A DNA stretch of 12,244 bases from a virus (IMGVR_UViG_3300027312_000135); one strand, 5' to 3'; counted from the stretch's first letter, positions 199-12,244 are shown. Numbers and translations are program-made. The notes: generated by a model not told the origin, from the letters alone.

Positions 199-388
199 CA
201 ACAACCTCCTTCAGTTGCTGAATAATTAGCCGCATATCATCCTCAAGGCGACCAACAGCGCGGTCAGAGAGCGGGTTGTCACCGCGATGGACCATGAGGA
301 GCTGCTGAGAGGCGTTTACGGCGTTGATGTAGGCGTTGCAAATTTGGCGGAATTGACGTTTTGAGATGGTGACTTGCTTGCTGCTCAA
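164..388 (-). CDS. Hypothetical nin-region protein (74 aa)
   Basis: ORF track entry. TTG start at 388-386 is preceded by AGGAGG. The start overlaps the upstream stop (TTGA) and the 3' end overlaps the ninB start. Confidence 0.55.
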   Translation of the reverse strand: MSSKQVTISKRQFRQICNAYINAVNASQQLLMVHRGDNPLSDRAVGRLEDDMRLIIQQLKEVVDGDTEGRHTAS

Positions 389-561
389 GTTTCCTCCTGC
401 TTGCTACAGGCGAGCCATGCGGCCTGCCAGCACTTCCACGCGTTAACTGTAGCGGGATCGTCGTACTCACCCTCATAGGTATGAAGGTCGAATCCCAACG
501 AATCAGCCCAAATCTCGAACTCCAGGTTACAGAACTCAAAATTTATTTTATCGTTTTTCAT
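385..561 (-). CDS. Hypothetical small protein (58 aa), paralogous to the C-terminus of the upstream 116-aa protein
   Basis: Hand-translated; below the ORF-track cutoff. Sequence is MKNDKINFEFCNLEFEIWADSLGFDLHTYEGEYDDPATVNAWKCWQAAWLACSKQEET. RBS is AGGAGA, and there is an ATGA overlap with the upstream gene. Confidence 0.5.
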   Translation of the reverse strand: MKNDKINFEFCNLEFEIWADSLGFDLHTYEGEYDDPATVNAWKCWQAAWLACSKQEET

Positions 562-908
562 GTGCTCTCCTGCTTACTACTTAAGGCTGCCTGCCATGCC
601 ATCCAGAAGCCAAATTTGATATGTGGCACTGCGTCGGTATATTTCGAGGATTCGAGATGCTTGTATTCAGCCTCAAACCACGCCTCAAACCTCTGCCGCT
701 CTAGCTCAGCTTTATCACTCATAGTTGTTACCGGATTATCAGAACGCGAGCAACTCATAAGGTCGATAGCTTCTTTTGCCAGCGTGCGGATATGCGTCAG
801 CGTGTCCTGCGATGCCGGTTGCTTCCGGGCGACGTCAATGATCGCCAGCACCAGGTTGCGTGTCTGGTCCTGTGTGGGCCGGATAATCAGCTGTGTTACC
901 TGCGTCAT
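558..908 (-). CDS. Hypothetical nin-region protein (116 aa)
   Basis: ORF track entry. RBS is GGAAGGGG, with an ATGA overlap with the upstream small ORF. The C-terminus FWMAWQAALSSKQEST resembles the downstream 58-aa ORF. Confidence 0.6.
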   Translation of the reverse strand: MTQVTQLIIRPTQDQTRNLVLAIIDVARKQPASQDTLTHIRTLAKEAIDLMSCSRSDNPVTTMSDKAELERQRFEAWFEAEYKHLESSKYTDAVPHIKFGFWMAWQAALSSKQEST

Positions 909-1060
909 GCTCTTGCCCCTTCCCGTCCTGCCAGCCAGAAGAAAAACGCGCGGTCGACAACCTCATCCTGATAGCCGAGGTGCGATCGGGTCATGCTGTG
1001 CTTGTCGCCGTGAACGCTGTGATAAAAACGCTCGAAGCTTCTTCTGATGCTTTCGCTCAT
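905..1060 (-). CDS. Hypothetical small protein (51 aa)
   Basis: Hand-translated: MSESIRRSFERFYHSVHGDKHSMTRSHLGYQDEVVDRAFFFWLAGREGARA. RBS GGGAGA sits 5 nt upstream. It starts 2 nt after the P stop and its stop overlaps the next ATG (ATGA). Confidence 0.45.
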   Translation of the reverse strand: MSESIRRSFERFYHSVHGDKHSMTRSHLGYQDEVVDRAFFFWLAGREGARA

Positions 1061-1062
1061 GA

Positions 1063-1755
1063 TTATCTCCCTTTCCTGACGAGAGCTTTCAGCCGGGCAA
1101 CGTTGTCCAGTGCCTTTTCGCTGGCTGTAGGCATGTAGAGCTTTTCCAGCTGCGCGCGCGGTGGGGGAATTTCTTCACCAGACTCGATGCGCGATGCCAT
1201 TTTGCGAAGCTCGGCGCGGCACTTTGCGCGCAGCTCAGGCTCAGAGAGGTTATTGGCGCGCATGGTGCTGTACAGTCCGGTGACCATCCAGTATGCGGCG
1301 TTGCTTTCCCACGGATACGCCTCGGGGCTGTCGATCAGACCGCGGCGGGCGGAGTACTTCATCACCATGTCATACAGACCGTCTTCGTCCGGCAGACCAG
1401 CGGAGCGGAGCTCGCCCTGCTTGCACCACTCGATAAATTGCCCAGGCGACGGCCAGAACGGCGAGGCACTGGCGCGGGCGTGCTTCATGCCGGCCGACAG
1501 CTGCTGCTTCGTGCTGATGTCGTTTTCAGCGAAGGCGGCGAGCCACTGACGCTTGGCTGAGGCTTCGTCGCGCGGATCCTTCAGCGCAGTGCTGACCGAT
1601 GCGGGAAAAACCTGCTTCAGGCTCATGAACAGCATGTCGACCAGACGCTCAACGGTTTCGTTAACGCCACGATCCACCGGCTGTGGGCCATCACCAGCCA
1701 TGCGGGCCAGCGCGCTGCTGTCGCGGTTGTTTATTGCGGCTACGAGATTTCTCAT
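1063..1755 (-). CDS. P: Replication protein P (DnaB helicase loader), lambda P family
   Basis: Translation shares long blocks with lambda P (PSPGQF.WC, YPW.SNA.YW.VT.LY..MRAN.L...ELR, RI..GE.IP.P). ATG at 1755 overlaps the O stop (ATGA). The ORF-track start at 1773 is an upstream GTG. Confidence 0.9.
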   Translation of the reverse strand: MRNLVAAINNRDSSALARMAGDGPQPVDRGVNETVERLVDMLFMSLKQVFPASVSTALKDPRDEASAKRQWLAAFAENDISTKQQLSAGMKHARASASPFWPSPGQFIEWCKQGELRSAGLPDEDGLYDMVMKYSARRGLIDSPEAYPWESNAAYWMVTGLYSTMRANNLSEPELRAKCRAELRKMASRIESGEEIPPPRAQLEKLYMPTASEKALDNVARLKALVRKGR

Positions 1756-2675
1756 ATGAAATTTTCCTCCCACTCTCTGCGGTCGTTCCAGTGTGGAATC
1801 TGCTGCTGTGAACTGGATGGCGCGTTGCGGGCCGGCTGGCTCATCTGCGCTTTAAGGGTCGCCCACTGCTTTCGCAGCTTCGACGGGCTGAGGATGTTGG
1901 TCTGCCAGAACTGATTGCCGTTCGCCCAGGTGAAGACTTCGCAGATTTCCCGGTGGCTGACCTTCAGGGAATCGCGCATCAGGCGAATGTCGTTTGCCCA
2001 GGCTGGCCAGTTGGGTTGCTGTGCTGTCGGGGTGATCACCTGAACCTTGCTGAAAATCCACTGAGCAGCCAGAAGGTCTTCAGCGGTTCCCCACTTATCG
2101 CCCTTAGGTGAATGAACCGCTGCATCAGGCCGAACAACAGGAAGACTTTTCAGACGCTCGTCAGAGGATTCGCCAGAATTCTCGGACGTATGTTTAATGT
2201 CTTTTTTGTCTTTTGTAATAGTGTCTTTTGTGTGTCCCTGTTTTGGTGACATCCCTGTCACTGTTTTGGTGACACTTTTTGTCACTGTTTTGGTGACGGT
2301 GACACCATCTTGGTGACACTCTGGAATTTGCCACTCAGCGAGGTTCTTATTAGGCCCGATTAGCATGCCTTCCCGGACCAGAACACCCATCTGAATAAGC
2401 TCGTTTTTCGCCTTGTTCACCTTCTGCCTGGGCAGTCTGGTGAGCTGGCTTATCTGGCTGTCAGCAATGCGATCCATCTTTTTGTTGAAGCCGTATGTTT
2501 TCCGGCAAACAGCATGCGCAACCTTCGCCTGGTTCCTGGTCAGGTTGGCCCCTATCAGCTCTTCGTACAGCTCGTTTGCCAGACGCGTATATCCGTCGTC
2601 TGTGTCTGCCACACGTTGCTCCACGGCCCGGAGTTCGGGCCTGATTGGCGTTACATTTGCGAGAGCGAGGCTCAT
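1752..2675 (-). CDS. O: Replication initiator protein O, lambda O family
   Basis: Translation matches lambda O in the N-terminal block (VADTDDGYTRL...RKTYGFNKKMDRIADSQISQLT) and C-terminal block (SENSGESSD...VVRPDAA...KWGTAEDL...WANDIRLMR...FW..N.LSP.KLR). The RBS GGAGGAGG is strong. Iterons lie inside the gene. Confidence 0.92.
   Translation of the reverse strand: MSLALANVTPIRPELRAVEQRVADTDDGYTRLANELYEELIGANLTRNQAKVAHAVCRKTYGFNKKMDRIADSQISQLTRLPRQKVNKAKNELIQMGVLVREGMLIGPNKNLAEWQIPECHQDGVTVTKTVTKSVTKTVTGMSPKQGHTKDTITKDKKDIKHTSENSGESSDERLKSLPVVRPDAAVHSPKGDKWGTAEDLLAAQWIFSKVQVITPTAQQPNWPAWANDIRLMRDSLKVSHREICEVFTWANGNQFWQTNILSPSKLRKQWATLKAQMSQPARNAPSSSQQQIPHWNDRREWEENFI
2190..2320 (-). repeat. 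ori: Replication origin: four GTCAC...GTGAC iterons plus an adjacent AT-rich segment, inside the O gene
   Basis: Iterons are gtccctgttttggtgac (2234-2250), gtcactgttttggtgac (2257-2273, 2281-2297) and a variant ggtgacaccatcttggtgac (2298-2317), spaced about 20-24 bp. T-rich DNA at 2190-2232 lies on the O-downstream side, as in lambda ori. Confidence 0.8.
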
Positions 2676-3475
2676 TTTGCCTCCTCCGGCTCTGTTGCAT
2701 CACCTAACACCCAACGGAGCGCTGCGGCGTAATCGCCGGTTGTCTCTGTCAGTGCCTGGGTAATTTCTTTGCGGGATCTCATGCGGGGTTTGCTTTCGCC
2801 CATCACGGCGCGCTGACGGCGGGCTCTTTCATGGCCCTTCGCTTCTGCACCGACTTGCGTTAGTTCTTTCACCTTGGCGCGCTGCTCTTCAGGCGGCATT
2901 GTTGACAGCTGGCGAGCATGCGTGACCGTCACCTGTCCGCCCTCTACTGCGTCCTGCACAGCCTGCGTGCAGTCCAGCAGTGCCAGGGTAGCTTTTACAG
3001 TCTGAAGGCTGCAGCCGAAAAGCAGCCCTAAATCCTGCTCATCGTGTCCGCGTTCAATCATCGCCGCCATTTTCTTTGCCCGCCCAAGGGGCGTATCGGC
3101 GCGCCGGATTTCGTTCGCGCTGACCATGTACTGGGACATGCGCACTGCCGATCCCCGCTTAGCGATTGCTGGCACGAGTACCGGTTCTTTACCTTCTGCC
3201 GCCAGGCGAATATTAGCCTCCAGGCTATGCCGGACCCGCTGACGACCGTCGACAACGCAGACCTTGCCGGATTCGGGATCTTTCCAGCACAGAACAGGCT
3301 CCAGAACGCCCTGATCCATGATGTTCAGCACCATCGCTTCGTCGATAGGCAGGTGAATGCGCTCGTCATAAAGCGGGTGTGATGGGTTGGTAACCAGGTA
3401 CAGGGCGCCCGGTTCGAAAAACAGCACGTTGCTTTTGCCGCTGGCGCCGTAAGCGTCGATTGAGTTCTTAGCCAT
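2672..3475 (-). CDS. ParB/Srx N-terminal-domain protein (ParB-like nuclease/CTPase fold) with a central HTH-like region
   Basis: 267-aa ORF with RBS GGAGG. The motif VVDGRQRV, followed by helix-rich and basic C-terminal regions, is typical of phage ParB-like proteins. ATGA overlap with the O start. Confidence 0.75.
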   Translation of the reverse strand: MAKNSIDAYGASGKSNVLFFEPGALYLVTNPSHPLYDERIHLPIDEAMVLNIMDQGVLEPVLCWKDPESGKVCVVDGRQRVRHSLEANIRLAAEGKEPVLVPAIAKRGSAVRMSQYMVSANEIRRADTPLGRAKKMAAMIERGHDEQDLGLLFGCSLQTVKATLALLDCTQAVQDAVEGGQVTVTHARQLSTMPPEEQRAKVKELTQVGAEAKGHERARRQRAVMGESKPRMRSRKEITQALTETTGDYAAALRWVLGDATEPEEAK

Positions 3476-3489
3476 TGGCGCCTCCGAGA

Positions 3490-3518
3490 TTGAAAACTTC
3501 AGCTACTTGTTTCATAAT
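3490..3518 (+). promoter_or_regulatory. Candidate Po-like promoter for the oop-like antisense RNA
   Basis: TTGAAA (3490-3495), a 17-nt spacer, then CATAAT (3513-3518). It lies in the cII-parB intergenic region and points into the cII 3' end. Confidence 0.55.
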
Positions 3519-3524
3519 TACTCC

Positions 3525-3591
3525 TGTGAATTGATCCAGTCTTTTCGCATCAGGCCTCGAAGCTGTTCGCGCAGCTCGGGGCCTTTTCTTT
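3525..3591 (+). ncRNA. oop: oop-like antisense RNA overlapping the 3' end of cII
   Basis: The promoter above is followed by an intrinsic terminator. The stem is 3553-3565 / 3572-3583 (12 bp with one bulge), the loop is ttcgcg, and the tail is TTTTCTTT at 3584-3591. Position and orientation match lambda oop. The 5' end is an estimate. Confidence 0.6.
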
Positions 3592-3849
3592 GGTAAGAAG
3601 CTGCTCAATGCGAAGCAGTCTTTGCGCCACTTCAGATTCCGGCGACACAACATCGAGGTAAGCCATAGCGAGGCTCATCATCTGGAAGAAGCTGTGTTTC
3701 TGCATTCCCGATCTGCGCTTCATTCGGCTTATGGTCGCTTCATCCATATCAAGCACTTTCGCCAGAGTTCCTTGTCCGCGTTCAGCCAGCTTGTTCAGTA
3801 ACTGACTTTCGATTTCTCGCGCTTTTTTGCGATAACTTGCAATTTCCAT
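3550..3849 (-). CDS. cII: Transcriptional activator cII
   Basis: REIESQLLNKLAERGQGTLAKVLDMDEATISRMKR aligns with lambda cII (LRIESALLNKIAMLGTEKTAEAVGVDKSQISRWKR). Its position after cro and nutR fits. Confidence 0.9.
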   Translation of the reverse strand: MEIASYRKKAREIESQLLNKLAERGQGTLAKVLDMDEATISRMKRRSGMQKHSFFQMMSLAMAYLDVVSPESEVAQRLLRIEQLLTKEKAPSCANSFEA

Positions 3850-3876
3850 GACGTAATATCTCTTTCGTTGAATAAG

Positions 3877-3911
3877 TTGCGTGACATTGCGGTGAGCAAG
3901 TCACTTAAGGT
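3877..3911 (+). promoter_or_regulatory. PRE-like cII-dependent promoter candidate (TTGC-N6-TTGC)
   Basis: TTGCgtgacaTTGC at 3877-3890 on the strand antisense to cro and sense to cI. A weak -10 candidate TAAGGT at 3906-3911 fits an activator-dependent promoter. Confidence 0.5.
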
Positions 3912-3912
3912 T

Positions 3913-3954
3913 TCCCCACACGGGCGGGGACGGGTTTCAGAGTGTTAAAGAGCG
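3913..3954 (-). promoter_or_regulatory. nutR: nutR: boxA plus boxB hairpin
   Basis: On the minus strand, boxA is CGCTCTTTAACA (3954-3943). BoxB is TCCCCgcccgtgtGGGGA (3930-3913). It lies between cro and cII and is nearly the same design as the nutL site. Confidence 0.75.
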
Positions 3955-3960
3955 GTGTTA

Positions 3961-4176
3961 CTAAGAGGCGGCTAACAGGTCTGCAAGATCAGGGCGAATC
4001 TCGAACGGTTTAACTCGACCCTGCGTGGCCTTGGATATTGCCAACACATATTTGGCATCTATGCCGCCTCCGTGTAGCCAACGCCAAACGGTCGGCTGTT
4101 TGACGCCGCAGAGATCAGCCAGCTTTTGCTGACTTCCTGCGATGTTCACAGCCCTTTGAATAGCTTTGTTAGTCAT
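3961..4176 (-). CDS. cro: Cro-like HTH repressor (Cro/YdaS-type)
   Basis: 71 aa from ATG 4176 with RBS AAGGAA: MTNKAIQRAVNIAGSQQKLADLCGVKQPTVWRWL... contains an HTH. It is divergent from cI. The ORF-track start at 4236 lies upstream of the PR candidate hexamers and would run through the operator region. Confidence 0.8.
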   Translation of the reverse strand: MTNKAIQRAVNIAGSQQKLADLCGVKQPTVWRWLHGGGIDAKYVLAISKATQGRVKPFEIRPDLADLLAAS

Positions 4177-4181
4177 AGCAA

Positions 4182-4276
4182 TTCCTTTACGTATTATCAC
4201 AGCAGGAATAATAGCAATGAGTATTGGTAAAGGCAATAGCTTTCCACATTTGACGGTTAATACGCCTAGCTATAAA
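4182..4276. promoter_or_regulatory. OR operator cluster with divergent PR and PRM candidates
   Basis: PR on the minus strand is TTGCCT (4236-4231), 17 nt, then TATTAT (4213-4208). PRM on the plus strand is TTGACG (4250-4255) with TATAAAT (4271-4277), placing the start a few nt before the cI ATG, so the mRNA would be nearly leaderless. Operator-like sites lie at 4182-4199, 4212-4229 (16/18 match to the best OL site) and 4255-4272. Confidence 0.6.
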
Positions 4277-4285
4277 TTGCGGGGT

Positions 4286-4909
4286 ATGAATAAAACTCTC
4301 GCAGAAAGATTGGCTAAGGCCATGCAAGAAAGGGATATGTCCCAGGGTGCTTTAGCTAAAGCATCGGGTGTAGCCCAACCAACTATCTGGCGCCTAGTCA
4401 AAGGTGAGGCCAAGGGTTCGACTCGTCTGGTTGATATTGCGCGCGCTCTGTCGGTGAGCGTTGAGTGGCTGGCTAACGGAACTGGGTCGATGGATGCTCA
4501 GGAAAAGATGACTTATCCTCAGCCACCAGCCAATGAGATGAAGCTCGGAGGGGTGTTTCCTGTTCCTGTCTTTGATCGCTCTAATGAACAAACACATGAC
4601 TATGTGTATGTCCCAAATTCAGTAGAGAGTGATAGCTGTAGAGCTTATATCTTAGAGCGAAATAGCGGGTGTTATGAAGCCCCTGCAGGAACTGTTGTCG
4701 TAGTAGACACAAAGGAAGAAGCTGGTAATGGTGATCTGGTTTACGCCAAAGTTAACGGGGCGTATTCCGTCTATAAATTTGTTGACGGCGGATCCACGGG
4801 TTATCTGTCAGTAGATGATGATCGCGTTCCTCTCGTACCTGCGACAACCGATTCATCCGTAATAGGCGTCGTCGTTTTCCTGCTGCGTGATCTGAAGCGC
4901 AAAAAGTAA
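4286..4909 (+). CDS. cI: cI-type prophage repressor: N-terminal HTH_XRE plus C-terminal S24/LexA-like domain
   Basis: MNKTLAERLAKAMQERDMSQGALAKASGVAQPTIWRLV.. is an XRE-type HTH. The C-terminal beta-rich domain (..GDLVYAKVNGAYSVYKF..) resembles an S24 peptidase fold. The ATG at 4286 was chosen because the ORF-track start at 4166 overlaps cro and OR. Confidence 0.85.
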   Translation: MNKTLAERLAKAMQERDMSQGALAKASGVAQPTIWRLVKGEAKGSTRLVDIARALSVSVEWLANGTGSMDAQEKMTYPQPPANEMKLGGVFPVPVFDRSNEQTHDYVYVPNSVESDSCRAYILERNSGCYEAPAGTVVVVDTKEEAGNGDLVYAKVNGAYSVYKFVDGGSTGYLSVDDDRVPLVPATTDSSVIGVVVFLLRDLKRKK

Positions 4910-5175
4910 TCCTCTTCATTTTTAGGGGGGGTGTATTCTGTATACCCTCCTTGCTTATTTCTAAGCAAAGCCGTCGCCATAATCCCTCCCCCTTTTCAAT
5001 CAAATCAGCATTTTATATTTTGAGTCCACCCAAAACACTGTTGTTTTAAACAGTAGTTTTCATAGTGAAACACATCCTCTTATAAATCAAGCAGAGCGTG
5101 ACGCTTTTTTTCTACCCTTCTCAAATCAGTAGCTTGCCACCATAAAACACTAATTTTTTTCGATACGAAATCATT

Positions 5176-5243
5176 CACTTATGCGTATTGCTATTGAAAT
5201 ATTACCAATACGTATTGCTATGAATAATACGCAATGCTATTGT
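5176..5243 (+). promoter_or_regulatory. OL operator cluster and PL promoter
   Basis: Three related sites lie at 5176-5193, 5203-5220 and 5222-5239. The middle one, TACCAATACGTATTGCTA, is an 18-bp palindrome with 8/9 pairs. The best promoter fit is TTGCTA (5215-5220), 17 nt, then TGcTATTGT (extended -10, 5235-5243). An alternative is TTGAAA (5194-5199), 19 nt, then TATGAA. Confidence 0.65.
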
Positions 5244-5285
5244 CTACCCCATCAGCAGGACGCAGTACCCAACAGGATGTTGGAT

Positions 5286-5332
5286 CGCTCTTTAACATTG
5301 ATGGGGTTTATTTCTCCCGCCCTTGTGGGAGA
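5286..5332 (+). promoter_or_regulatory. nutL: nutL: boxA plus boxB hairpin
   Basis: BoxA is CGCTCTTTAACA (5286-5297). BoxB is TCTCCCgcccttgtGGGAGA (5313-5332). It lies between PL and N. Confidence 0.75.
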
Positions 5333-5515
5333 CCAAAGAGCAGTTGGCTTTGGGATTGGATGAATGCGCAGGCATGGCTGGGATTAGCGAGTATTCCCGG
5401 CGTCGGCTGAAGCCGCTGGATAACAAACCCGCCTTGAGCGGTGGCAAAACCAGCGCGAGTGAACAGCGAGGAGCACCGGCCATCCAATCACCTAAGCCAA
5501 CTACCGGAGGTAAAT

Positions 5516-5785
5516 ATGTTTGCAGCTACCAACAGCGTCAGCCGTCGCTACCTCAAGCGTGGCGAACTGATCGCAAAACGCCGGGCAGAAGCGGCTGAAA
5601 GTAAAGCCCGCGTTGACGCCAGTGCTGAGCGCGTTTCGCGCGCTGTATCGGCGCCGAGCCTTCGTGAGAAACAAGACGTAGTAGCGCTACGCGTTAGTAC
5701 TAAATATCAGAAAATCAGCAACGAAGCTGGCCGTCAGATTCACGCTGTACAGAAGATCCGCGGAAAAAGCATTCCGCTTATCTAA
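5516..5785 (+). CDS. N: Antitermination protein N (phage 21-like arginine-rich motif)
   Basis: ATG at 5516 follows GGAGG. The N-terminus NSVSRRYLKRGELIAKRRAEAA resembles the phage 21 N ARM (SRYKARRAELIAERR). The C-terminal ..GKSIPLI resembles phage 21 ..GSKPLI. Confidence 0.85.
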   Translation: MFAATNSVSRRYLKRGELIAKRRAEAAESKARVDASAERVSRAVSAPSLREKQDVVALRVSTKYQKISNEAGRQIHAVQKIRGKSIPLI

Positions 5786-6050
5786 TGGCTTTCGATCCAG
5801 TCAGTACGCTGATGAACGAGATGAAGCTGATAGAGGTTATTAGCTTCTGCTCGCCTTCCACAGTTACAGCAGATAGCGCCATGAGGGGTATTTTTTTCTG
5901 CGTCTTTGAAGGTGAACTGAAATCAGCGTGCTCCACATTCAGGGCACCGAAACTTAACACGGCCCATGAGGAGACTCCGTTTTGGTTTTGCTTAGTGATA
6001 GGTAACCCTAACATTCCTTCCAGCTTTAGCCAGCAAAAAATGAACTTACT

Positions 6051-6071
6051 GCCGCATAAGCGGCTTTTTTT
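6051..6071 (+). terminator. Intrinsic terminator (tL1-like) downstream of N
   Basis: GCCGC-ataa-GCGGC stem-loop followed by T7 (6065-6071). Confidence 0.7.
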
Positions 6072-6095
6072 ACGCCCAAATTCAGGAGAGTAACG

Positions 6096-6368
6096 ATGTG
6101 CAATTGCATTGAAGAGGCTGGCCAGAAGGTCCGGGAGCAGATGCTCAAAAGCAAACCGGATGATGCCGAAATCGACGAAAGCTGGGGAGCCAGCGGCTGG
6201 GATAATCAGGTCATGTCGCTCGGCGATGGCAAAATTCGCGTGATGCTCAATTACAAAATGGGCTGGTATCCACGCAAGAAAGACGGCAGCCGCGCTAAGA
6301 ACGCAAGCCGCAAAGAAATGGCCGTGAAGATGAGTCACTGCCCTTTCTGTGGCGTCAGCCTTGAGTGA
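6096..6368 (+). CDS. Hypothetical 90-aa protein with split Cys pairs (CxC ... CPFC), possibly a zinc ribbon
   Basis: RBS AGGAG lies 6 nt upstream. The sequence runs MCNCIEEAGQKV...KMSHCPFCGVSLE. It occupies the ral/kil position of the PL operon. The antisense 197-aa ORF was judged a shadow. Confidence 0.65.
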   Translation: MCNCIEEAGQKVREQMLKSKPDDAEIDESWGASGWDNQVMSLGDGKIRVMLNYKMGWYPRKKDGSRAKNASRKEMAVKMSHCPFCGVSLE

Positions 6369-6459
6369 CACCGCAATGGCCTGTTACGGCAGGTCATGAC
6401 GGTGCATTTGCACCAGACGCGTAATGAGCCGCAGTGCGGTACGAGAGTTTTTCGCCTTT

Positions 6460-6491
6460 GGCTCCTGCAGGAATGCAGGGGCCATTTTTTT
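6460..6491 (+). terminator. Strong intrinsic terminator immediately upstream of cIII
   Basis: GGCTCCTGCA-ggaa-TGCAGGGGCC forms a 10-bp stem including one G-U pair, followed by A then T7 (6485-6491). Confidence 0.75.
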
Positions 6492-6522
6492 AACCAAACC
6501 AACCGAATTAAGGATGTCCACG

Positions 6523-6660
6523 ATGAATCTTGCGATCGCGGGCGGCACCATCGTGGATGCCGCTCAGCTTTACCCTTCCCAGTTAACCCGCTTAACAGAA
6601 CGCCTGCGCACCATTTGTCGCTGGCTGAAAGACACCCTGATGCAGCCAGGGAGACCCTAA
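6523..6660 (+). CDS. cIII: cIII (FtsH/HflB protease inhibitor)
   Basis: MNLAIAGGTIVDAAQLYPSQLTRLTERLRTICRWLKDTLMQPGRP aligns with lambda cIII MQYAIAGWPVAGCPSESLLERITRKLRDGWKRLIDILNQPGVP. RBS AAGGA lies 8 nt upstream. An in-frame ATG at 6514 is an alternative start. Confidence 0.85.
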   Translation: MNLAIAGGTIVDAAQLYPSQLTRLTERLRTICRWLKDTLMQPGRP

Positions 6661-6773
6661 TGAAAATTCGTTACTTCCAGAAAGCGCAGGAGCTTTCACG
6701 CGAGGCCCATCTGTTCGGCGACAGCGCGAAGTGGGCTATGGCAATGCTGTTGTTACGGAGAGCGCACCAGTGA
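6660..6773 (+). CDS. Possible 37-aa ORF coupled to cIII
   Basis: TAATG overlap with the cIII stop. The sequence is MKIRYFQKAQELSREAHLFGDSAKWAMAMLLLRRAHQ. There is no independent support. Confidence 0.35.
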   Translation: MKIRYFQKAQELSREAHLFGDSAKWAMAMLLLRRAHQ

Positions 6774-6811
6774 AACTTTCATGGCGAGCAAAACAGGAAG
6801 TCGAGGAGATT

Positions 6812-7081
6812 ATGAAAAATCTCTCTGAGACCGATTTAGAGCGCATCGGCGATGAAGCCGACTCGATGATGGACCAGCACAAGATTAACCCGCTGATGAC
6901 CGCGCTGTGCGCGTTCCTGCCTAAGCACTTCGATTACCCCGCTGTCGAGCTGGTCGACGAAGACGACGAGCAGTACGAAGCCGCCGAAAACTTCCTGCGC
7001 GATGCGCTGGTGAAAGTCGCTAAGCGGGACATGGCGATCGCCATCTGGAAAAGCCGAAACAGCTTCGATGAGGTGGCGTGA
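6812..7081 (+). CDS. Hypothetical acidic protein (89 aa; possibly 103-116 aa from upstream starts)
   Basis: ATG at 6812 follows GAGGAG. In-frame alternatives are GTG 6770 (GTGA-coupled to the 37-aa ORF, RBS GGAGAG) and ATG 6731. The stop overlaps the recE-like ATG (TGATG). Confidence 0.65.
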   Translation: MKNLSETDLERIGDEADSMMDQHKINPLMTALCAFLPKHFDYPAVELVDEDDEQYEAAENFLRDALVKVAKRDMAIAIWKSRNSFDEVA

Positions 7082-7899
7082 TGCAGCCTGGCATCTATTA
7101 CGACATCAGCAACGAGTCGTACCACAGCGGCCCCGGCATCAGTAAATCGCAGCTGGACGACATCGCGATCAACCCGGCCATCTTTCAGTGGCGCAAAGAA
7201 GCGCCAGAGGACGAAGAGAAGAAATCGGCACTGGATATGGGCACGGCCCTGCACTGCCTGCTGCTGGAGCCTGAAGAGTTTGATCACCGCTTCATCGTGG
7301 CGCCCGAGTTTAACCGCCGCACCAATGAAGGAAAGGCGAACGAGAAAGCCTTTCTGCAGGACTGCGCCGGGCTGGGCATGACGGTGATGGACGCCGAGGA
7401 AGGTCGCAAGCTGAAGCTTATGCAGGCCAGCGCCCTCGCCCACCCGGCCGCACGCTGGTTACTGGAGGCAGAAGGCCATCAGGAGGCGTCAATCTACTGG
7501 AATGATGAGCAGACAGGCGAACTTTGCCGGATCAGGTCAGACAAGTTTCTTTCGGAACAGCCCGTCATCGTTGACGTGAAAAAAGTGGCTGATATGTCCC
7601 GCTTCGCCCGGCACGTCGAAGAGTTCCGCTATCACGTTCAGGACGCCTATTACCGCGAGGGCTTCAGTCAGCATTTCGGCGAATACCCGCTTTTCGTTTT
7701 TATCGCCGTCAGCGAGTCGATCGACTGCGGCCGGTATCCGGTGCGCACCTTCCAGCTGCAGGAGGACGATGTTTCCGTGGGCTACGACCTCTTTCGCCGC
7801 GACCTGAACACCTATCACGAATGCATGCTGACCGGTAACTGGGGCGGCATCGAAGAAATCACGCGCCCGGACTGGGCAAAAAGGAAGGATTACGCATGA
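7081..7899 (+). CDS. recE: RecE-like / PD-(D/E)XK exonuclease (exodeoxyribonuclease VIII C-terminal-domain type)
   Basis: Nuclease motifs are visible: ..RIRSDKF.., IVDVKKV (D/E-x-K) and HVQDAYY (QxxxY). It lies immediately upstream of, and overlaps, recT. Confidence 0.8.
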   Translation: MQPGIYYDISNESYHSGPGISKSQLDDIAINPAIFQWRKEAPEDEEKKSALDMGTALHCLLLEPEEFDHRFIVAPEFNRRTNEGKANEKAFLQDCAGLGMTVMDAEEGRKLKLMQASALAHPAARWLLEAEGHQEASIYWNDEQTGELCRIRSDKFLSEQPVIVDVKKVADMSRFARHVEEFRYHVQDAYYREGFSQHFGEYPLFVFIAVSESIDCGRYPVRTFQLQEDDVSVGYDLFRRDLNTYHECMLTGNWGGIEEITRPDWAKRKDYA

Positions 7900-8798
7900 G
7901 CAACGAAATTACGCACCCGCCGGTCAACGAGGCCGACACCAAAGCGGCAATTTTCAGCCCGAGCGCATTGCAGAAGCTGCAGGCGTTTGCCGAAGTGATG
8001 GCAATGGGAAAAGTCACAGTTCCCGCCCACCTGGCTGGTAAACCCGCCGATTGTCTCGCTGTCGCGCTTCAGGCTGCACAGTGGGGCATGAACCCCTACG
8101 CAGTGGCGCAGAAAACACATGCCGTTAACGGCACGCTGGGCTACGAAGCGCAACTGGTAAACGCCGTCATAACCAGCTCTACGGCCGTGCAGGGTCGCTT
8201 CAAATATGAGTACGGCGGCGACTGGGAGAAGTTCAAGCCCGGCGCAGCTAACGCGGCGAATGAACGCGGCCTGTTTGTCCGGGTCGGCGCCGTGCTGCGC
8301 GGCGAGACGGAAATCACCTGGGGCGAGCCGCTGTTTCTGGAGTTCGTAACCACCCGCAACTCTCCGCTCTGGAAAACAGCGCCGAAGCAGCAGCTGGCTT
8401 ATCTGGCCGTCAAATACTGGGCGCGCCTCTACTGCCCTGACGTCATCCTCGGCGTTTACACCCCAGATGAGTTTGAACCGGCGCAGCGCGCGGAACGTGA
8501 TGTTACCCCAGCACGCAGCCGTGCAGACCTGAACAACCTGATCAACAGCAAGCCCGAAACGCAGCAGCCCGAGCGCGAAATTAACCCGGCGACTAACACC
8601 AGTGCACCAGCGCGCACGCCGGACGAGCTCCTTGCCGATTTCACCACCGCTGCAGCTGAAGCGGAAAACGTTGCCGGTCTGGACCGCTGCTACAAATACG
8701 CGGCACGCATGCTGGCTAATGATGGTCAAGATCTTGTAAAGGCGACGAAGGTTTATCAGATACGCAAGAAAGAACTTAGCGATTCAGATTTAGGATAA
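7896..8798 (+). CDS. recT: RecT-family single-strand annealing protein
   Basis: The 300-aa ORF has an ATGA overlap with the exonuclease gene. The core (..QAAQWGMNPYAVAQKTHAVNGTLGYEAQL.. , ..NSPLWKT.PKQQLAYLAVKYWARLY..) is typical of RecT. Confidence 0.88.
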   Translation: MSNEITHPPVNEADTKAAIFSPSALQKLQAFAEVMAMGKVTVPAHLAGKPADCLAVALQAAQWGMNPYAVAQKTHAVNGTLGYEAQLVNAVITSSTAVQGRFKYEYGGDWEKFKPGAANAANERGLFVRVGAVLRGETEITWGEPLFLEFVTTRNSPLWKTAPKQQLAYLAVKYWARLYCPDVILGVYTPDEFEPAQRAERDVTPARSRADLNNLINSKPETQQPEREINPATNTSAPARTPDELLADFTTAAAEAENVAGLDRCYKYAARMLANDGQDLVKATKVYQIRKKELSDSDLG

Positions 8799-8830
8799 AC
8801 ATGTAGTACACTTATAGCTCTATAAAATTC

Positions 8831-8861
8831 AAAAAATATTTCCCCTCAGCCGAGGGGAAAT
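8831..8861 (-). terminator. Intrinsic terminator ending the minus-strand island operon; may act weakly for recT on the plus strand
   Basis: ATTTCCCCTC-agcc-GAGGGGAAAT forms a 10-bp stem (8838-8861). On the minus strand it is followed directly by ATTTTTT (8837-8831). Confidence 0.8.
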
Positions 8862-8863
8862 GA

Positions 8864-9004
8864 TTAAGGTTTTTTTGGCGGTGGGGCTGGTTGCGTAACT
8901 TGTTTAGCTGGTTTATAACCCTCGTTTACTGGCTGTGATTTCGGTTGATAACCATAGTCATATGGTTGATATCCATCTTCTTTGAACCTTTTTTCATTGG
9001 CCAT
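8864..9004 (-). CDS. Proline-rich micro-protein paralog 3 (46 aa; 50 aa if started at 9016)
   Basis: Hand-translated: MANEKRFKEDGYQPYDYGYQPKSQPVNEGYKPAKQVTQPAPPPKKP*. It shares its C-terminal motif with the two upstream micro-ORFs. The RBS is weak. Confidence 0.55.
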   Translation of the reverse strand: MANEKRFKEDGYQPYDYGYQPKSQPVNEGYKPAKQVTQPAPPPKKP

Positions 9005-9033
9005 TTTTACACTCATCTTCAATTACTTAAATA

Positions 9034-9177
9034 TTATGGTTTTTTAGGGGGAGGTACGGGCTGTGTTACTTGTTTTGAAGGTTTGTAACCCTTTTCGACA
9101 GGCTTCTCTTTTGGCTGATACCCACGATCGGTATTATCACCGTTAAATTTAGAATACTTCTGGTTAAATAATTTCAT
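9034..9177 (-). CDS. Proline-rich micro-protein paralog 2 (47 aa)
   Basis: Hand-translated: MKLFNQKYSKFNGDNTDRGYQPKEKPVEKGYKPSKQVTQPVPPPKKP*. A GAGGTAGGA RBS region precedes the ATG. Confidence 0.6.
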   Translation of the reverse strand: MKLFNQKYSKFNGDNTDRGYQPKEKPVEKGYKPSKQVTQPVPPPKKP

Positions 9178-9191
9178 ACCGTTTCCTACCT

Positions 9192-9335
9192 CTATGGCTT
9201 TTTTGGAGGAGGTGCAGGAGGGGTAACCTGTTTCGGAGGTATATAACCACCATTAACACCATTGCTACTCTGGTTTTTACTTTGAGCTCTAGGTTGATAA
9301 CCATCTTGAGCTATGCCTTTATTTTTTTGCATCAT
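9192..9335 (-). CDS. Proline-rich micro-protein paralog 1 (47 aa; 46 aa from the second ATG)
   Basis: Hand-translated: MMQKNKGIAQDGYQPRAQSKNQSSNGVNGGYIPPKQVTPPAPPPKKP*. RBS is GGAGA. It starts 20 nt after the stop of the 195-aa membrane protein. Confidence 0.6.
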   Translation of the reverse strand: MMQKNKGIAQDGYQPRAQSKNQSSNGVNGGYIPPKQVTPPAPPPKKP

Positions 9336-9355: not shown

Positions 9356-9943
9356 CTACGTTTCATAAAATTCAATCTTTTCAATATCTTTAGAGAGAAT
9401 AAGCACGCCCTGAGTCTTATCTTTGACGCTATCAAAACCACCGTCGCTATTAATGTGCCAACTTTGCTCTAAATAGAGTTGCTCTGGTTCAGGAGCGCTG
9501 GAAGCAAAAGAGTCACTACCATAATACCCGCCTATAGTCTTTCCGTCTTTTAAAGTAACAACGACCCAAGCCGTTTTACGCAATCCAAAATAATAATCCC
9601 AAGATCTTCCTGTTGGGTGTGGTAATAAGTTCTTTATCCATGGCAAAACTCTGGCCTTAGAGAAAATAAGCGCCAATAGAATAGGGCTTATTATCAAAAC
9701 AATCATATAAAAACAAAAGTAAATGAACGGGTGAGAAAACTTAAAGCCCAGCCCTTCAAAATAATATATTGGAATAAACCAAATCGCGTGATTGATGCAA
9801 CTGTAAGATACAACTTCTACTATCGCTTTTGAAGTATCTATTTGTACTGTAGGATGAAAAACATTATATGCTTTCATGCTTAGAAAGCCAGGAACGACAA
9901 AAAGGATAAAAATAAATAACTTACTACTATTCCAGATATCCAT
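9356..9943 (-). CDS. Integral membrane protein (three predicted TM helices plus a C-terminal soluble domain), function unknown
   Basis: 195-aa ORF in AT-rich DNA. Hydrophobic segments are KLFIFILFVVPGFLSMKAY, AIVEVVSYSCINHAIWFIPIYYF and PFIYFCFYMIVLIISPILLALIF. These are followed by RSWDYYFGLRKTAWVVVTLKDGKTIGGYYG...LYLEQSW. The layout is reminiscent of small DUF-type membrane proteins of prophages (recollection, not verified). Confidence 0.8.
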   Translation of the reverse strand: MDIWNSSKLFIFILFVVPGFLSMKAYNVFHPTVQIDTSKAIVEVVSYSCINHAIWFIPIYYFEGLGFKFSHPFIYFCFYMIVLIISPILLALIFSKARVLPWIKNLLPHPTGRSWDYYFGLRKTAWVVVTLKDGKTIGGYYGSDSFASSAPEPEQLYLEQSWHINSDGGFDSVKDKTQGVLILSKDIEKIEFYET

Positions 9944-10120
9944 TAGAGTTTTCTTCGAGTGATTTTTCTTTAAAAGAGCAAAACTGCACCTTCATGTCAA
10001 TAATTTTTTAGATGATTTTAAAGTATTACTAGTTTTCTTGATGAACAACACATAGCAGAGAAATACATGATGATAAGGTATACGTGGGCATGCCCCAACG
10101 ATGTCAATTCCAAGGAGCTT

Positions 10121-10246
10121 ATGAACATGCCGGTAATAGTTACGAAGTGGAGATGCAGCAGCCGGAAGCGGCTAAAGTTTTACCGTGATGGGTCGATGCA
10201 GTTACCGGAGGGTTACGATCCGATTTATCAGAAAGAGGGGGATTGA
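10121..10246 (+). CDS. Small basic peptide (41 aa; 59 aa if started at ATG 10067, 39 aa from ATG 10127)
   Basis: AAGGAG at 10112-10117. The sequence is MNMPVIVTKWRCSSRKRLKFYRDGSMQLPEGYDPIYQKEGD*. The stop TGA shares its A with the ATG of the 220-aa gene (TGATG). Confidence 0.45.
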   Translation: MNMPVIVTKWRCSSRKRLKFYRDGSMQLPEGYDPIYQKEGD

Positions 10247-10905
10247 TGTTCGAGCTATTTGATAAGAGATATTCCCATAGGATATCAGAAGCTCTTAAAG
10301 AGAAAGTTCGCACTGACATAGATGGGCCAGGATTCATTGCTCGGGGGATTCTTGAGGCTATTCGCTTACTAGAAGGTGAAAACGTAGCGCAGTCCACAAG
10401 AGCGATGCGACATAAGGAGCGAGAACTAAAAGGGGAACTAGAAGGTTTTTTTCATATTCACGTTGCAGAAGACAATTTTAGTAGATTAATGAATAATTTT
10501 GGTGGGAAGCCCTCTAAACCAATAAAAAACCCCAGACCAGATGAATTGATTGCTTATGCCACAAATCAAGTCTTAAAAGCATATGTTAAAAAATTTAGCA
10601 TCCCTTATAGTAGTGATGACACTCAACATTTGAGGGATGCCATAATTAACAGCAGCCATGCGAAGAAGATTGGCGCTGATAATATTTTTGATTCAATTCA
10701 GAAGCAAATACCTATGATGATAGACAAGGTATTTTTTTCAAACAATAAAGTTAGTGGCGATTGGTTATTATATAAAAAACACAGCGATGGTAAAAACTAT
10801 TACCTTGATTTCACAGTACATGTAGAATCAGAAGATACGCAGCGCCAAATTGAACTTCGAGCGTCTTTGAATAAATCTTTCCAAGAACTTATCAAACAAC
10901 ATTAA
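10246..10905 (+). CDS. Hypothetical 219-aa protein of the AT-rich island
   Basis: ATG at 10246 follows GAGGGGG; the ORF-track start at 10243 is a TTG one codon upstream. AT-rich codon usage matches the island. A strong terminator follows. I recognise no family with confidence. Confidence 0.78.
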   Translation: MFELFDKRYSHRISEALKEKVRTDIDGPGFIARGILEAIRLLEGENVAQSTRAMRHKERELKGELEGFFHIHVAEDNFSRLMNNFGGKPSKPIKNPRPDELIAYATNQVLKAYVKKFSIPYSSDDTQHLRDAIINSSHAKKIGADNIFDSIQKQIPMMIDKVFFSNNKVSGDWLLYKKHSDGKNYYLDFTVHVESEDTQRQIELRASLNKSFQELIKQH

Positions 10906-10920
10906 TTCTTAATAACTTTG

Positions 10921-10942
10921 ACCTGCTCCGGCAGGTTTTTTT
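10921..10942 (+). terminator. Intrinsic terminator closing the island
   Basis: ACCTGC-tccg-GCAGGT stem followed by a T-run to 10942. Confidence 0.85.
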
Positions 10943-10959
10943 ACGCCTAAATTTCGGAA

Positions 10960-11178
10960 ATGACTATGAATTTTCCAGATCCAGCAGACGAAGCAGCAGA
11001 ACGCGAACAGCAGCTGATAGAGGTAGCGCTGGCGAACAGGCCGGTTCCGCTGATGACTTACACAGGTAAATGTCACTACTGCGAAGAGCCAATCGACAAG
11101 GGGCATTTCTGCAGCGATGAATGTCGAACCGATCATGAGCGTATTCAGCATGCTCTTCGCAACAAAAAGGTGGCATGA
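10960..11178 (+). CDS. DksA/TraR-like small zinc-finger protein
   Basis: The 72-aa ORF reads ..EREQQLIEVALANR...GKCHYCEEPIDKGHFCSDECRTDHE. This is a CxxC...FCSxxC arrangement like phage TraR-type proteins. The start could be ATG 10966. Confidence 0.6.
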   Translation: MTMNFPDPADEAAEREQQLIEVALANRPVPLMTYTGKCHYCEEPIDKGHFCSDECRTDHERIQHALRNKKVA

Positions 11179-11390
11179 CGCCGCAAACTGAAAACGCACT
11201 AAGGGCCGTAGCGCGTAAGTGCAGGAGCGAGATTCTTAAAGCCATTGATGGCACAGAACACGACCGCATCATAACCATCCTTCTCGATAAGCACGCCAAA
11301 ACCGTTCAATGCCTACCGCCAGGCACATTCCCGGCAAAACGCTGGCTGTCCTTCTATGTGCGGCAGGTAGATAAGGAAATTCGCCAGTGA
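11175..11390 (+). CDS. Hypothetical protein (71 aa)
   Basis: ATGA overlap with the upstream gene and GTGA overlap with the downstream methyltransferase. GC content resembles the backbone. Confidence 0.6.
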   Translation: MTPQTENALRAVARKCRSEILKAIDGTEHDRIITILLDKHAKTVQCLPPGTFPAKRWLSFYVRQVDKEIRQ

Positions 11391-11959
11391 ATATCGTTAA
11401 TGACTATGGCGACAGCACCACACCGCCCGAACACCGTGACAGCTGGCAGACGTCGCCGGAAATATTTGCTGCGCTGAACCGCAATTTCCGCTTTGTGGCT
11501 GATGTTGCGGCGAGCGAGCATAACCACCTGCTCCCGGTTTACTTCACCGAAAAGGACGACGCGCTGGCGCAGGACTGGGCCGGACAACTGCCACTGGGGA
11601 TCACCTGGTGCAATCCGACCTATAGCGACATTTCTCCCTGGGTGAAGAAAGCCGCGGAGGAATGCCGTAAAGGGATCGGCATCGTGATGCTTGTTCCCGC
11701 TGACACTTCGGTCGGCTGGTTCAGCCTGGCGCGGAACTCATGCACCGAGGTGCGCTTCATTATCGACGGTCGACTCTCGTTTATTCGCGCTGATACAGGC
11801 AAGCCGGTCAACGGCAACAATAAGGGATCGATGCTGTTGATCTGGAACCCGTTCACCTCAGATTTTGGCATAACCGGGCATGTCTCGCGTGACACGCTAA
11901 TGGCGATCGGACGGAAGCTATTGTCCGAACGGGAGCCTGCCGACGAGCGCGCCGCATGA
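11387..11959 (+). CDS. dam: Phage Dam-type DNA N6-adenine methyltransferase
   Basis: WQTSPEIFAALNRNFRFVADVAASEHN...YFT..DDAL..DW....WCNPTYSDISPWVKKA matches the phage N6A-MTase family layout. The catalytic tetrad reads NPTY rather than N/DPPY. The start is a GTG. Confidence 0.85.
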   Translation: MNIVNDYGDSTTPPEHRDSWQTSPEIFAALNRNFRFVADVAASEHNHLLPVYFTEKDDALAQDWAGQLPLGITWCNPTYSDISPWVKKAAEECRKGIGIVMLVPADTSVGWFSLARNSCTEVRFIIDGRLSFIRADTGKPVNGNNKGSMLLIWNPFTSDFGITGHVSRDTLMAIGRKLLSEREPADERAA

Positions 11960-12058
11960 CAGCCACCATAAAGAAGCCGACATGGGCTGGATTATCACTA
12001 ATCTGGCCCTTTTTATTTGTATCGTGCTGGCCTGGCTATGGCCGCCAAAGGAGTAGAT

Positions 12059-12244
12059 ATGGAACGAATGTATAGCTGCCGACAGGTTTGTGAAATTCTG
12101 AGCATCGGTAAAACCACTCTATATCGAAAGGTAAAAAGTGGTGAAATTGATAAGCCTCTGCGTAACGGTTGCCGGATGAGCCGTTGGCCGGAATCAAGCA
12201 TCACACGTTATCAGGAATCACTGAAACGAAGTCATGCGGCATAA
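12059..12244 (+). CDS. xis: AlpA/Xis-type excisionase or DNA-binding regulator
   Basis: ATG at 12059 follows AAGGAG. MERMYSCRQVCEILSIGKTTLYRKVKSGEIDKPLRNG.RMSRWPESSI is a typical AlpA-family HTH. The stop is at the window end, and an integrase is expected beyond. Confidence 0.78.
   Translation: MERMYSCRQVCEILSIGKTTLYRKVKSGEIDKPLRNGCRMSRWPESSITRYQESLKRSHAA

Follow-up and report, generated by a model that had tools for sequence, protein, structure and literature searches.

In a viral DNA stretch of 12,244 nucleotides (nt; IMGVR_UViG_3300027312_000135, hereafter the window), the gene at 9356..9943 on the minus strand encodes a member of the protein family DUF6338 and is followed by three small open reading frames (ORFs) for proline-rich microproteins. 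We found that the pairing of DUF6338 with such a microprotein is near-universal and reciprocal, and that it extends over bacteria and one archaeon. Structural modeling predicts that the DUF6338 product is a small inner-membrane protein with a cytoplasmic Sm/LSm-like barrel, on which the microprotein likely docks. We hold the structural and pairing claims together with high confidence. The account as a whole, which adds by analogy an anti-phage or toxin–antitoxin-like function, has in our estimation an even chance of being right.

The product of 9356..9943 had been called an orphan in a first-pass annotation, which also suspected a DUF-class family with this layout. The suspicion was correct and the label was not, because the protein matches Pfam DUF6338 (PF19865) over its full length: residues 5-194 cover positions 4-201 of the 205-position model with a score of 120.1 bits (gathering cut-off 26.5, E = 1.3e-34), which makes it a member of this family. 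The ORF itself was annotated exactly, in position, strand, length and quoted sequence. Given the DUF6338 match and 138 homologs from a word-indexed search, it is no chance ORF; homologs in the database bear the same Pfam label. A profile of the family collects about 2,565 clusters at 50% identity, 1,469 of them with E ≤ 1e-10 and nearly all 190-215 amino acids (aa) long. For the most part its members, previously catalogued as a DUF only, are chromosomal, lie outside prophages and come from varied phyla. DUF6338 is the sole Pfam family matched by the window protein at E ≤ 1; the protein has no match in PHROGs at E ≤ 0.1, and none of the cassette proteins matched PHROGs, PADLOC or NCBIfam. These searches agree with the earlier impression that the protein is unrelated to SieB, and they returned no holin or spanin from either Pfam or PHROGs.

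The DUF6338 gene heads a compact minus-strand unit, as expected for the annotated first gene of an island operon, which runs through the three micro-ORFs into a hairpin terminator. Its features are the following.

9356..9943, minus strand: DUF6338 gene, ATG start, 195 aa, first gene of the cassette
9653..9937, minus strand: membrane part of DUF6338, residues 3-97, from AlphaFold2 helices, hydropathy and invariant columns
9362..9604, minus strand: predicted Sm/LSm/Hfq-like barrel of DUF6338, residues 114-194, predicted cytoplasmic, with the co-varying residues V128 and D167
9192..9335, minus strand: microprotein 1 (47 aa), MMQKNKGIAQDGYQPRAQSKNQSSNGVNGGYIPPKQVTPPAPPPKKP, with a GGAG Shine–Dalgarno sequence and a start 21 nt past the DUF6338 stop
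9034..9177, minus strand: microprotein 2 (47 aa), MKLFNQKYSKFNGDNTDRGYQPKEKPVEKGYKPSKQVTQPVPPPKKP, with a AGGTAGGA Shine–Dalgarno sequence
8864..9016, minus strand: microprotein 3 (50 aa), MSVKMANEKRFKEDGYQPYDYGYQPKSQPVNEGYKPAKQVTQPAPPPKKP, ATG at 9016
8829..8861, minus strand: intrinsic terminator-like hairpin (8861..8838), ATTTCCCCTCGGCTGAGGGGAAAT, with a T-run, 3 nt past the last stop
9972..10000, minus strand: tentative promoter, TTGACA at 10000..9995, a 17-nt spacer ending in TGc, and TCTTTT at 9977..9972

The gaps within the unit measure 21 nt before microprotein 1 and 14 nt before microprotein 2, with a short one before microprotein 3. Microproteins 1 and 2 have good Shine–Dalgarno sequences. 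For microprotein 3, the mechanical ORF starts from a TTG at 9022 and a further ATG lies at 9004; the gene caller on an identical contig gives the 50-aa product. The three micro-ORFs are diverged paralogs, with 21-29 of 47 residues identical in pairwise comparison, and they share GYxP motifs and a QPxPPPKKP tail, so that all three end in PPPKKP. Our definition of the cassette requires at least one same-strand ORF that encodes 45-70 aa, has GY(Q/V)P motifs as well as a charged tail containing PP, and starts no more than a few tens of nt from the DUF6338 stop; the window contains three of this kind. The stem of the terminator hairpin comprises 10 bp including 5 GC pairs. The tentative promoter, TTGACA with an extended -10-like element, was read by eye about 28 nt 5' of the ATG. 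We found no operator-like inverted repeat upstream of the cassette, and no Rfam family matched. The GC content of the cassette island is 0.375, compared with 0.538 for the remaining window.

To describe the protein we relied on an AlphaFold2 model built with 41 homologs (predicted local distance difference test, pLDDT, 80.7). This model contains helices at residues 3-29, 37-64 and 72-97, then two short helices, and eight strand segments within residues 125-194. The beta-rich soluble domain that the annotation had placed at the C-terminus is therefore present. Its "three clear hydrophobic helices" were slightly generous: the model does give three, but on Kyte–Doolittle hydropathy only helices 1 and 3 exceed 1.6, and the middle helix, rich in polar residues (YSCINH), reaches only about 1.26 in a hand calculation. 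The membrane and soluble parts are conserved to the same degree, and invariant positions include PGF (18-20), S48 and N51 in a YSxxNY motif, P87 and R98, which suggests that the helices are likely more than a mere anchor. Lysine and arginine together average 5.6 residues after helix 3, against zero at the N-terminus and 1.0 within loop 2, and by the positive-inside rule this distribution indicates an N-out/C-in topology, with the barrel on the cytoplasmic side. The assignment of the barrel is structural, in that the predicted model has the N-terminal helix and the five-stranded, strongly bent barrel of the Sm/LSm fold. Homology to the Sm1 and Sm2 sequence motifs was not found: the family profile has no sequence match in the PDB at E ≤ 10, and the window protein has no match to Pfam LSM or Hfq at E ≤ 1. 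Several aromatic residues on the surface of the barrel are conserved (W115, F119, W126, F146, Y157 and W162). Conserved aromatics are the expected look of a polyproline-binding site, as known from SH3, WW and GYF domains.

The partnership with microproteins was established on 80 species-representative genomic DUF6338 loci, which we scanned by a motif rule. These loci come from Gamma-, Beta- and Alphaproteobacteria, Desulfobacterota, Nitrospirota, Synergistota, Bacteroidales, Planctomycetota, Sumerlaeota, Chloroflexi and a Methanosarcinales archaeon. A strict regular expression for the tail (PPP...K/R) undercounted partners, at 32 of 89 loci, and GYxP was adopted after inspection as the more general signature. 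By the motif rule, 80 partner ORFs occur in 74 kb of same-strand sequence directly downstream of DUF6338; the 73 kb upstream gave a single one, the antisense strand none, and 1.32 Mb of other sequence 7. Once variants were inspected (a single GYQP with PPPKKP in L012 and L023, SYxP in L079), 78 of the 80 loci had a partner, the only exceptions being L025 and L041. The partnered loci encode one to four microproteins of about 55 aa directly after DUF6338, and the partner usually starts between -40 and +30 nt relative to the DUF6338 stop. An independent replication set of 58 IMG/VR viral contigs with 47 distinct DUF6338 genes gave the same picture (45 of 47 with a partner, 0 matches in 87 kb of controls). 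The reverse test started from four microprotein matches (Chlorobaculum, Sulfurimonas, a proteobacterial metagenome-assembled genome and a metagenome) and located DUF6338 2-12 nt upstream of the microprotein in all 8 of 8 places. A 62%-identical DUF6338 in another slot of Enterobacter prophages precedes a pair of micro-ORFs that carry these motifs too. The first-pass annotation had treated the three micro-ORFs as an optional extra, whereas they are conserved, obligate partners of the protein that probably bind it. Arrays of 2-4 diverged microproteins are found at 14 of 47 viral vs 4 of 80 genomic loci (L012-L091; p = 3e-4), which identifies the window triplet as the typical phage-borne form. 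As a separate observation, the phage-borne tails (L101-L158, IMG/VR) are nearly all basic, of the form PPPK[KNQ][PR].

The microproteins align as one family with the consensus MSxKK..EGYQP..KGYQP...GGYQPTxSxGdxP.NPPPKKP and a median length of 55 aa. They consist of 18% proline, 12% lysine, 11% glycine and 8% glutamine, with hydrophobic residues nearly absent, and we take them to be cytosolic, disordered proteins. Of their tails, 54 are basic, 21 acidic and 5 neutral. Searching a database of 5.8 billion sequences with a profile built from 45 microproteins retrieved 199 proteins (best E = 2.5e-15). All 199 are 47-74 aa long, lack a Pfam domain and are named "hypothetical" at most, and gene callers often miss these microproteins. 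By their sequences, the three micro-ORFs of the window belong to this family, which has neither a Pfam model nor a name.

Two further observations concern the ends of these proteins. Every microprotein tail (in the window at 8864-8884, 9034-9054 and 9192-9212) has two or three consecutive prolines (PPP, PPG, PPD, PPE) a few codons ahead of its stop. The window micro-ORFs finish with Pro-stop, and the terminator hairpin begins 3 nt beyond the last stop. Diprolyl and triprolyl motifs near a stop codon depend on EF-P and slow termination, and the Pro-rich ends may have a translational or regulatory side-effect. We do not favor a purely cis-acting role of the PPP/Pro-stop codons, such as ribosome stalling over the terminator, given that the motifs are kept at the amino-acid level in different phyla and that the proteins accumulate in vivo. 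Second, the long DUF6338 homologs P0052, P0062, P0081, P0094, P0110, P0123 and P0142 are extended at the C-terminus by 40-80 aa that bear G(R/E)(V/I/L)P-type motifs and stand in place of a separate GYQP microprotein. These extensions may be a diverged, fused form of the microprotein partner.

Accumulation in vivo is documented by published data from P. stutzeri ATCC 14405, in which three new proline-rich proteins of less than 50 aa (SEP1, SEP5 and SEP2) were assigned to a predicted operon with the DUF6338 gene Pstu14405_RS12030 (PMC10433244). Digest-free mass spectrometry of cell-pellet lysates detected the three small proteins with 44-114 peptide-spectrum matches and 98-100% coverage, and their sequences end in ...APPPPKK, ...APPPPPKRDSK and ...APPPPPKKGG (PMC10433244). 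The corresponding genes lie at 2666728-2667116 of CP036186. The authors described the three proteins as "not conserved beyond" P. stutzeri and as products of possibly newly evolved genes, remarked on the occurrence of DUF6338 in biosynthetic gene clusters, and drew no link between the small proteins and the membrane protein (PMC10433244). The common tail and gene context that we observe contradict this species-specificity, although clear GYxP motifs are missing from the P. stutzeri proteins. Since the P. stutzeri proteins are unmodified, near full-length and cell-associated, these data also argue against secretion, cleavage or processing of the kind known from ribosomally synthesized and post-translationally modified peptides (RiPPs). 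Literature searches on DUF6338/PF19865, on Sm-like anti-phage proteins and on proline-rich small proteins of prophages turned up PMC10433244 alone. A search for GYQP/PPPKKP returned SARS-CoV-2 spike peptides only, and the Thoeris papers do not mention the DUF6338 family.

Direct binding of the microprotein to DUF6338 is likely, because the charge of the tail co-varies in a complementary manner with residues 167 and 128 of the barrel and because natural fusions exist. Adjacency and translational coupling of the two genes are observed; binding is argued from the covariation and the fusions. We compared the charge of the last four microprotein residues with the charge at each DUF6338 column. The charge at residue 167, which is an aspartate of the NSDGGF loop in the window protein, gave rho = -0.73 overall, and that at residue 128, a valine of its first barrel strand, gave rho = -0.83. 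Within the clade holding most acidic tails (n = 27), the values were -0.66 and -0.64, respectively (permutation p = 5e-5), and in both scans these two residues were the top complementary columns. Tail and residue 167 have opposite signs in 42 (basic tail, acidic residue) and 15 (acidic tail, basic residue) pairs and the same sign in 4 (Fisher p = 1.7e-10, uncorrected for phylogeny). The charge has switched in separate lineages: PPGKE tails occur with D/E167 inside a clade of PPGDE tails with K/R167, the archaeal PPEDP tail goes with R167, and a PPPKDP tail goes with K167. The net charge of the Sm-like domain follows the same trend, with -2.8 in proteins paired to basic tails and +1.1 in those paired to acidic tails. 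In P0116, P0145 and P0181, DUF6338 is naturally fused in frame to a GYxP...PPKK tail. In an AlphaFold2 model of P0116 the linker is disordered and pLDDT rises modestly, to about 71, over the last nine residues, a rise that polyproline geometry alone could explain.

With these elements we turned to the question as to what the cassette may do. We propose that it is an anti-phage (abortive-infection or exclusion) or toxin–antitoxin-like module. The microprotein tail, and probably the GYxP motifs too, would dock on the aromatic-rich, oppositely charged face of the Sm-like domain. Sm domains usually form rings, and assembly of the DUF6338 barrels as a ring would bundle the helices into a channel-like structure. 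Abundant microproteins would hold this membrane effector harmless, and their loss, titration or displacement during infection would allow the effector to breach or depolarize the membrane. The diverged arrays that are typical of phage-borne copies could raise the dose or widen the range of what is sensed. A more specific version, which we put forward tentatively and expect may well prove wrong, is a widespread, so far unrecognized two-component anti-phage system in which a latent Sm-like ring channel is stapled shut by disordered microproteins; the copies in phage-borne arrays would share a docking tail and differ in their baits, and so respond to different release cues.

The genomic neighborhoods of DUF6338 point in the direction of defense. 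Among 272 nearest-neighbor ORFs from about 78 genomic loci, Pfam families are highly varied (132 and 117 different families in two neighbor sets). The recurrent ones are ThsB_TIR/TIR_2 (9), caspase-like Peptidase_C14 (6) and integrases (6), and further AAA_21, MmeI, RVT_1, SIR2_2, HerA and SNF2. PADLOC identified retron and DRT reverse transcriptases, type I, IIG and III restriction–modification systems, DrmMI, MADS, DpdE, GajA/B, SIR2-pAgo, bSEFIR and PDC candidates among these neighbors. The recurrent neighbors also include Gabija, HerA-SIR2, DISARM, Dpd, pAgo and KAP NTPase. An exclusion or abortive-infection role, as suggested by the first-pass annotation, is compatible with such defense-island neighborhoods, which is an argument by association. 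The distribution of DUF6338 is patchy and resembles that of horizontally transferred genes. There is a realistic chance that the cassette is a new defense system.

Several points weigh against this interpretation. A defense or toxin role is argued from neighborhood and analogy alone, and PADLOC-DB v2 (E ≤ 1), PHROGs and NCBIfam match neither DUF6338 nor the microproteins. Just 1 of 50,697 deposited phage genomes contains the gene. A constitutive complex without toxicity could likewise account for the high steady-state level of the microproteins. The P. stutzeri small proteins have no obvious GYxP, and their link to the family runs only through tail and gene context. The covariation is only partly corrected for phylogeny, since the acidic-tail loci belong largely to one clade, and the rise in pLDDT in the P0116 fusion possibly reflects just polyproline geometry. 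Finally, a consensus sigma-70 scan upstream of DUF6338 called no promoter, the one read by eye included.

Of the alternative explanations, the one that survives best is a selfish, toxin–antitoxin-like addiction module without an anti-phage role, although we consider it unlikely. DUF6338 would then be a membrane toxin and the microproteins labile antitoxins, and the cassette would persist since its loss kills the cell or destabilizes the carrier element. The tight, translationally coupled two-gene unit, the covariation that suggests direct binding, the carriage on prophages, a phage-plasmid and islands, and the patchy distribution would all suit such a module. However, canonical type II antitoxins are usually encoded first and contain a DNA-binding domain, whereas the putative antitoxin in this cassette comes second, is predicted to be fully disordered and is often present in several copies. 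In addition, repeated adjacency to bona fide defense genes is more typical of defense cargo. This explanation overlaps with the module that we propose, because many toxin–antitoxin systems also defend against phages.

We find it improbable that the microproteins themselves are the active agents, for example as cationic, proline-rich peptides directed at the ribosome, chaperones or a component of the incoming phage, with DUF6338 as their anchor, exporter or immunity protein. Their contents of proline (18%) and lysine (12%) loosely recall proline-rich antimicrobial peptides, an idea also raised for the P. stutzeri proteins (PMC10433244), and the phage-borne arrays are diversified. On the other hand, the microproteins lack a signal peptide, their P. 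stutzeri relatives were found full-length and unmodified in cell lysates, about a quarter of the family has acidic tails unsuited to a cationic antimicrobial action, and the motifs are GYxP rather than PRP. Moreover, the charge of the tail follows that of the partner domain, which suggests that the job of the tail is to dock on DUF6338.

Similarly improbable as a general explanation is that DUF6338 serves as a signal-activated effector of nucleotide-signaling, Thoeris-like immunity, in which the Sm-like ring would bind a TIR-derived nucleotide between protomers, with the microprotein in an accessory role. In favor of this idea, nucleotide binding where protomers meet is classical for Sm folds. 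TIR genes and caspase-like proteases are the commonest neighbors, and loci L009, L036 and L165/166 contain operon-like series of TIR, a caspase-like protease or unknown gene, DUF6338 and microprotein. An analogue is ThsF, an effector with three transmembrane helices for which nucleotide binding between protomers has been proposed (10.64898/2025.12.03.692087). Yet TIR accounts for only about 9 of the 272 neighbor ORFs and is present neither in the window nor in the Enterobacter or Klebsiella prophage copies, and the microprotein is the sole invariant partner. TIR and a caspase-like protease already make up a complete type IV Thoeris system, and the net negative Sm-like domain of the basic-tail majority is a poor fit for anionic nucleotides. 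For the minority of TIR-linked loci a Thoeris-type reading is plausible, and their apparent operons might represent a type IV Thoeris-like system extended by a membrane module. These operons lie at 3650-5597 (L009), 4941-6600 (L036) and 1-3183 (L165), the TIR being of the ThsB_TIR or CAP12-PCTIR_TIR type, and there is a 4-nt overlap between the caspase-like gene and the start of DUF6338 in L009.

A housekeeping phage membrane protein (holin, spanin or SieB-type exclusion protein) or a RiPP precursor and processing pair, as might be read from a small membrane protein in a prophage, from tandem small ORFs superficially like RiPP precursor arrays and from the presence of DUF6338 in biosynthetic gene clusters (PMC10433244), is largely excluded and to us barely credible, given that Pfam and PHROGs show no match to holin, spanin or SieB, that the gene lies outside a lysis cassette, between recT and the dam/xis/int end, that most DUF6338 members are chromosomal in varied phyla, that no conserved tailoring enzyme occurs among neighbors as varied as those described above, and that the P. 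stutzeri proteins are full-length and unmodified.

The window around the proposed defense cassette represents a prophage of the lambdoid type. Its backbone (1-8800 and 10940-12244) has only weak nucleotide similarity to known E. coli, Klebsiella and Erwinia phages. Besides the cassette, the window includes the following features.

4166-4909, plus strand: cI-like repressor
7078-7899, plus strand: putative exonuclease, read as such from the ORF
7896-8798, plus strand: RecT
10243-10905, plus strand: 220-aa ORF in the low-GC island, divergent from the cassette, with a terminator-like hairpin at 10920-10937
11387-11959, plus strand: Dam

The backbone also contains a candidate cro-like ORF, a CII-like ORF on the minus strand, ParB-like and O-like replication genes and an excisionase-like helix-turn-helix protein. 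A segment 3' of the cI-like gene (about 4910-5440) has a lower GC content (0.41-0.45) and no convincing long ORF. The cassette lies antisense between the recT/exonuclease genes (7078-8798, plus strand) and the 220-aa ORF, dam, xis and int (plus strand). With its low GC content, its orientation antisense to the flanking phage genes and its own terminator, it fits the moron-like setting that had been annotated. A megablast search with the island as query found nothing in E. coli genomes and phages. The window protein is encoded identically on three metagenome contigs with the same neighbors. On contig L001 the backbone continues with the integrase, adjoining an ABC-transporter/acetyltransferase locus. 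Homologs in Enterobacter and Klebsiella lambdoid prophages are also antisense, between the replication genes and the DinI/nin region, and other accessory slots with antisense homologs are those of an E. coli prophage at the acpS site and the Klebsiella phage-plasmid pJN2-26. Accessory slots that hold the cassette are thus known from three other, unrelated prophage types of enterobacteria and from one phage-plasmid. In Enterobacter prophages L004-L008 (about 7075-9268), a gene for a KAP-family P-loop NTPase of 707-730 aa follows the cassette directly and in the same orientation; this gene may be a further, co-transcribed component, or else a defense gene in its own right. We considered the 220-aa ORF as a third component of the cassette but rejected this idea, since the other prophages that hold its homologs lack DUF6338, which marks it as an independent accessory gene. 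It is a near-orphan, with 14 homologs among 5.8 billion proteins (in Serratia, Enterobacter and Raoultella prophages) and no match in Pfam, PADLOC or NCBIfam.

If our account is true, it provides a first structural and functional frame for an uncharacterized family of about 2,500 clusters, and uncovers an unnamed family of ~55-aa proteins across phyla and one archaeon, the relatives of which are abundant in at least one proteome. It would correct the published species-specificity of the P. stutzeri small proteins and put forward a candidate for a new defense or toxin–antitoxin logic, with a membrane-anchored Sm-like ring under the control of a disordered proline-rich microprotein. For the interface, a natural handle is offered by the charge-swap pairs of residue 167 and tail.

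Among known systems, the P. stutzeri operon resembles the window most directly, with DUF6338 followed by three small proline-rich proteins that have APPPPKK-like tails and are expressed according to mass spectrometry; it differs in that its peptides have no clear GYxP. Compared with Sm, LSm and Hfq proteins, DUF6338 is predicted to be membrane-tethered, its likely ligand is a proline-rich peptide instead of RNA, and no sequence relation is detectable. The core plan of MscS comprises an N-out topology, three helices and a cytoplasmic Sm-like beta domain, assembled as a heptameric ring. DUF6338 shares this gross plan but lacks the C-terminal alpha/beta domain of MscS. We rejected membership in the MscS family, since hhalign gave a probability of 0.9% over 16 aligned columns (against an E. 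coli MscS sequence entered by hand) and Pfam MS_channel was not matched; on account of the hhalign result we regard MscS as an architectural analogy only. The Thoeris effector ThsF/DUF2270, Cap15 of CBASS and the SLATT proteins are like DUF6338 in combining a few helices with a small cytoplasmic domain, which is ligand-sensing in those proteins, and in residing in defense islands; they are predicted to assemble as rings or channels. They are triggered by nucleotide signals from a partner enzyme, whereas the invariant partner in the DUF6338 cassette is a disordered microprotein and no enzyme. Type II toxin–antitoxin systems, RexAB of lambda and SieB are likewise compact, co-transcribed prophage cargo antisense to phage genes with one membrane partner, but they have no sequence or fold relation to the cassette. 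A further difference from type II systems lies in the putative antitoxin of the cassette, which follows its partner in gene order, lacks a DNA-binding domain and is present as diverged tandem copies. To our knowledge, the combination of a membrane-tethered Sm-like domain and a disordered proline-rich microprotein has not been described in any system. What is new relative to these systems is the family-wide microprotein partner, the predicted Sm-like domain, the inferred interface between the two and the association with defense islands.

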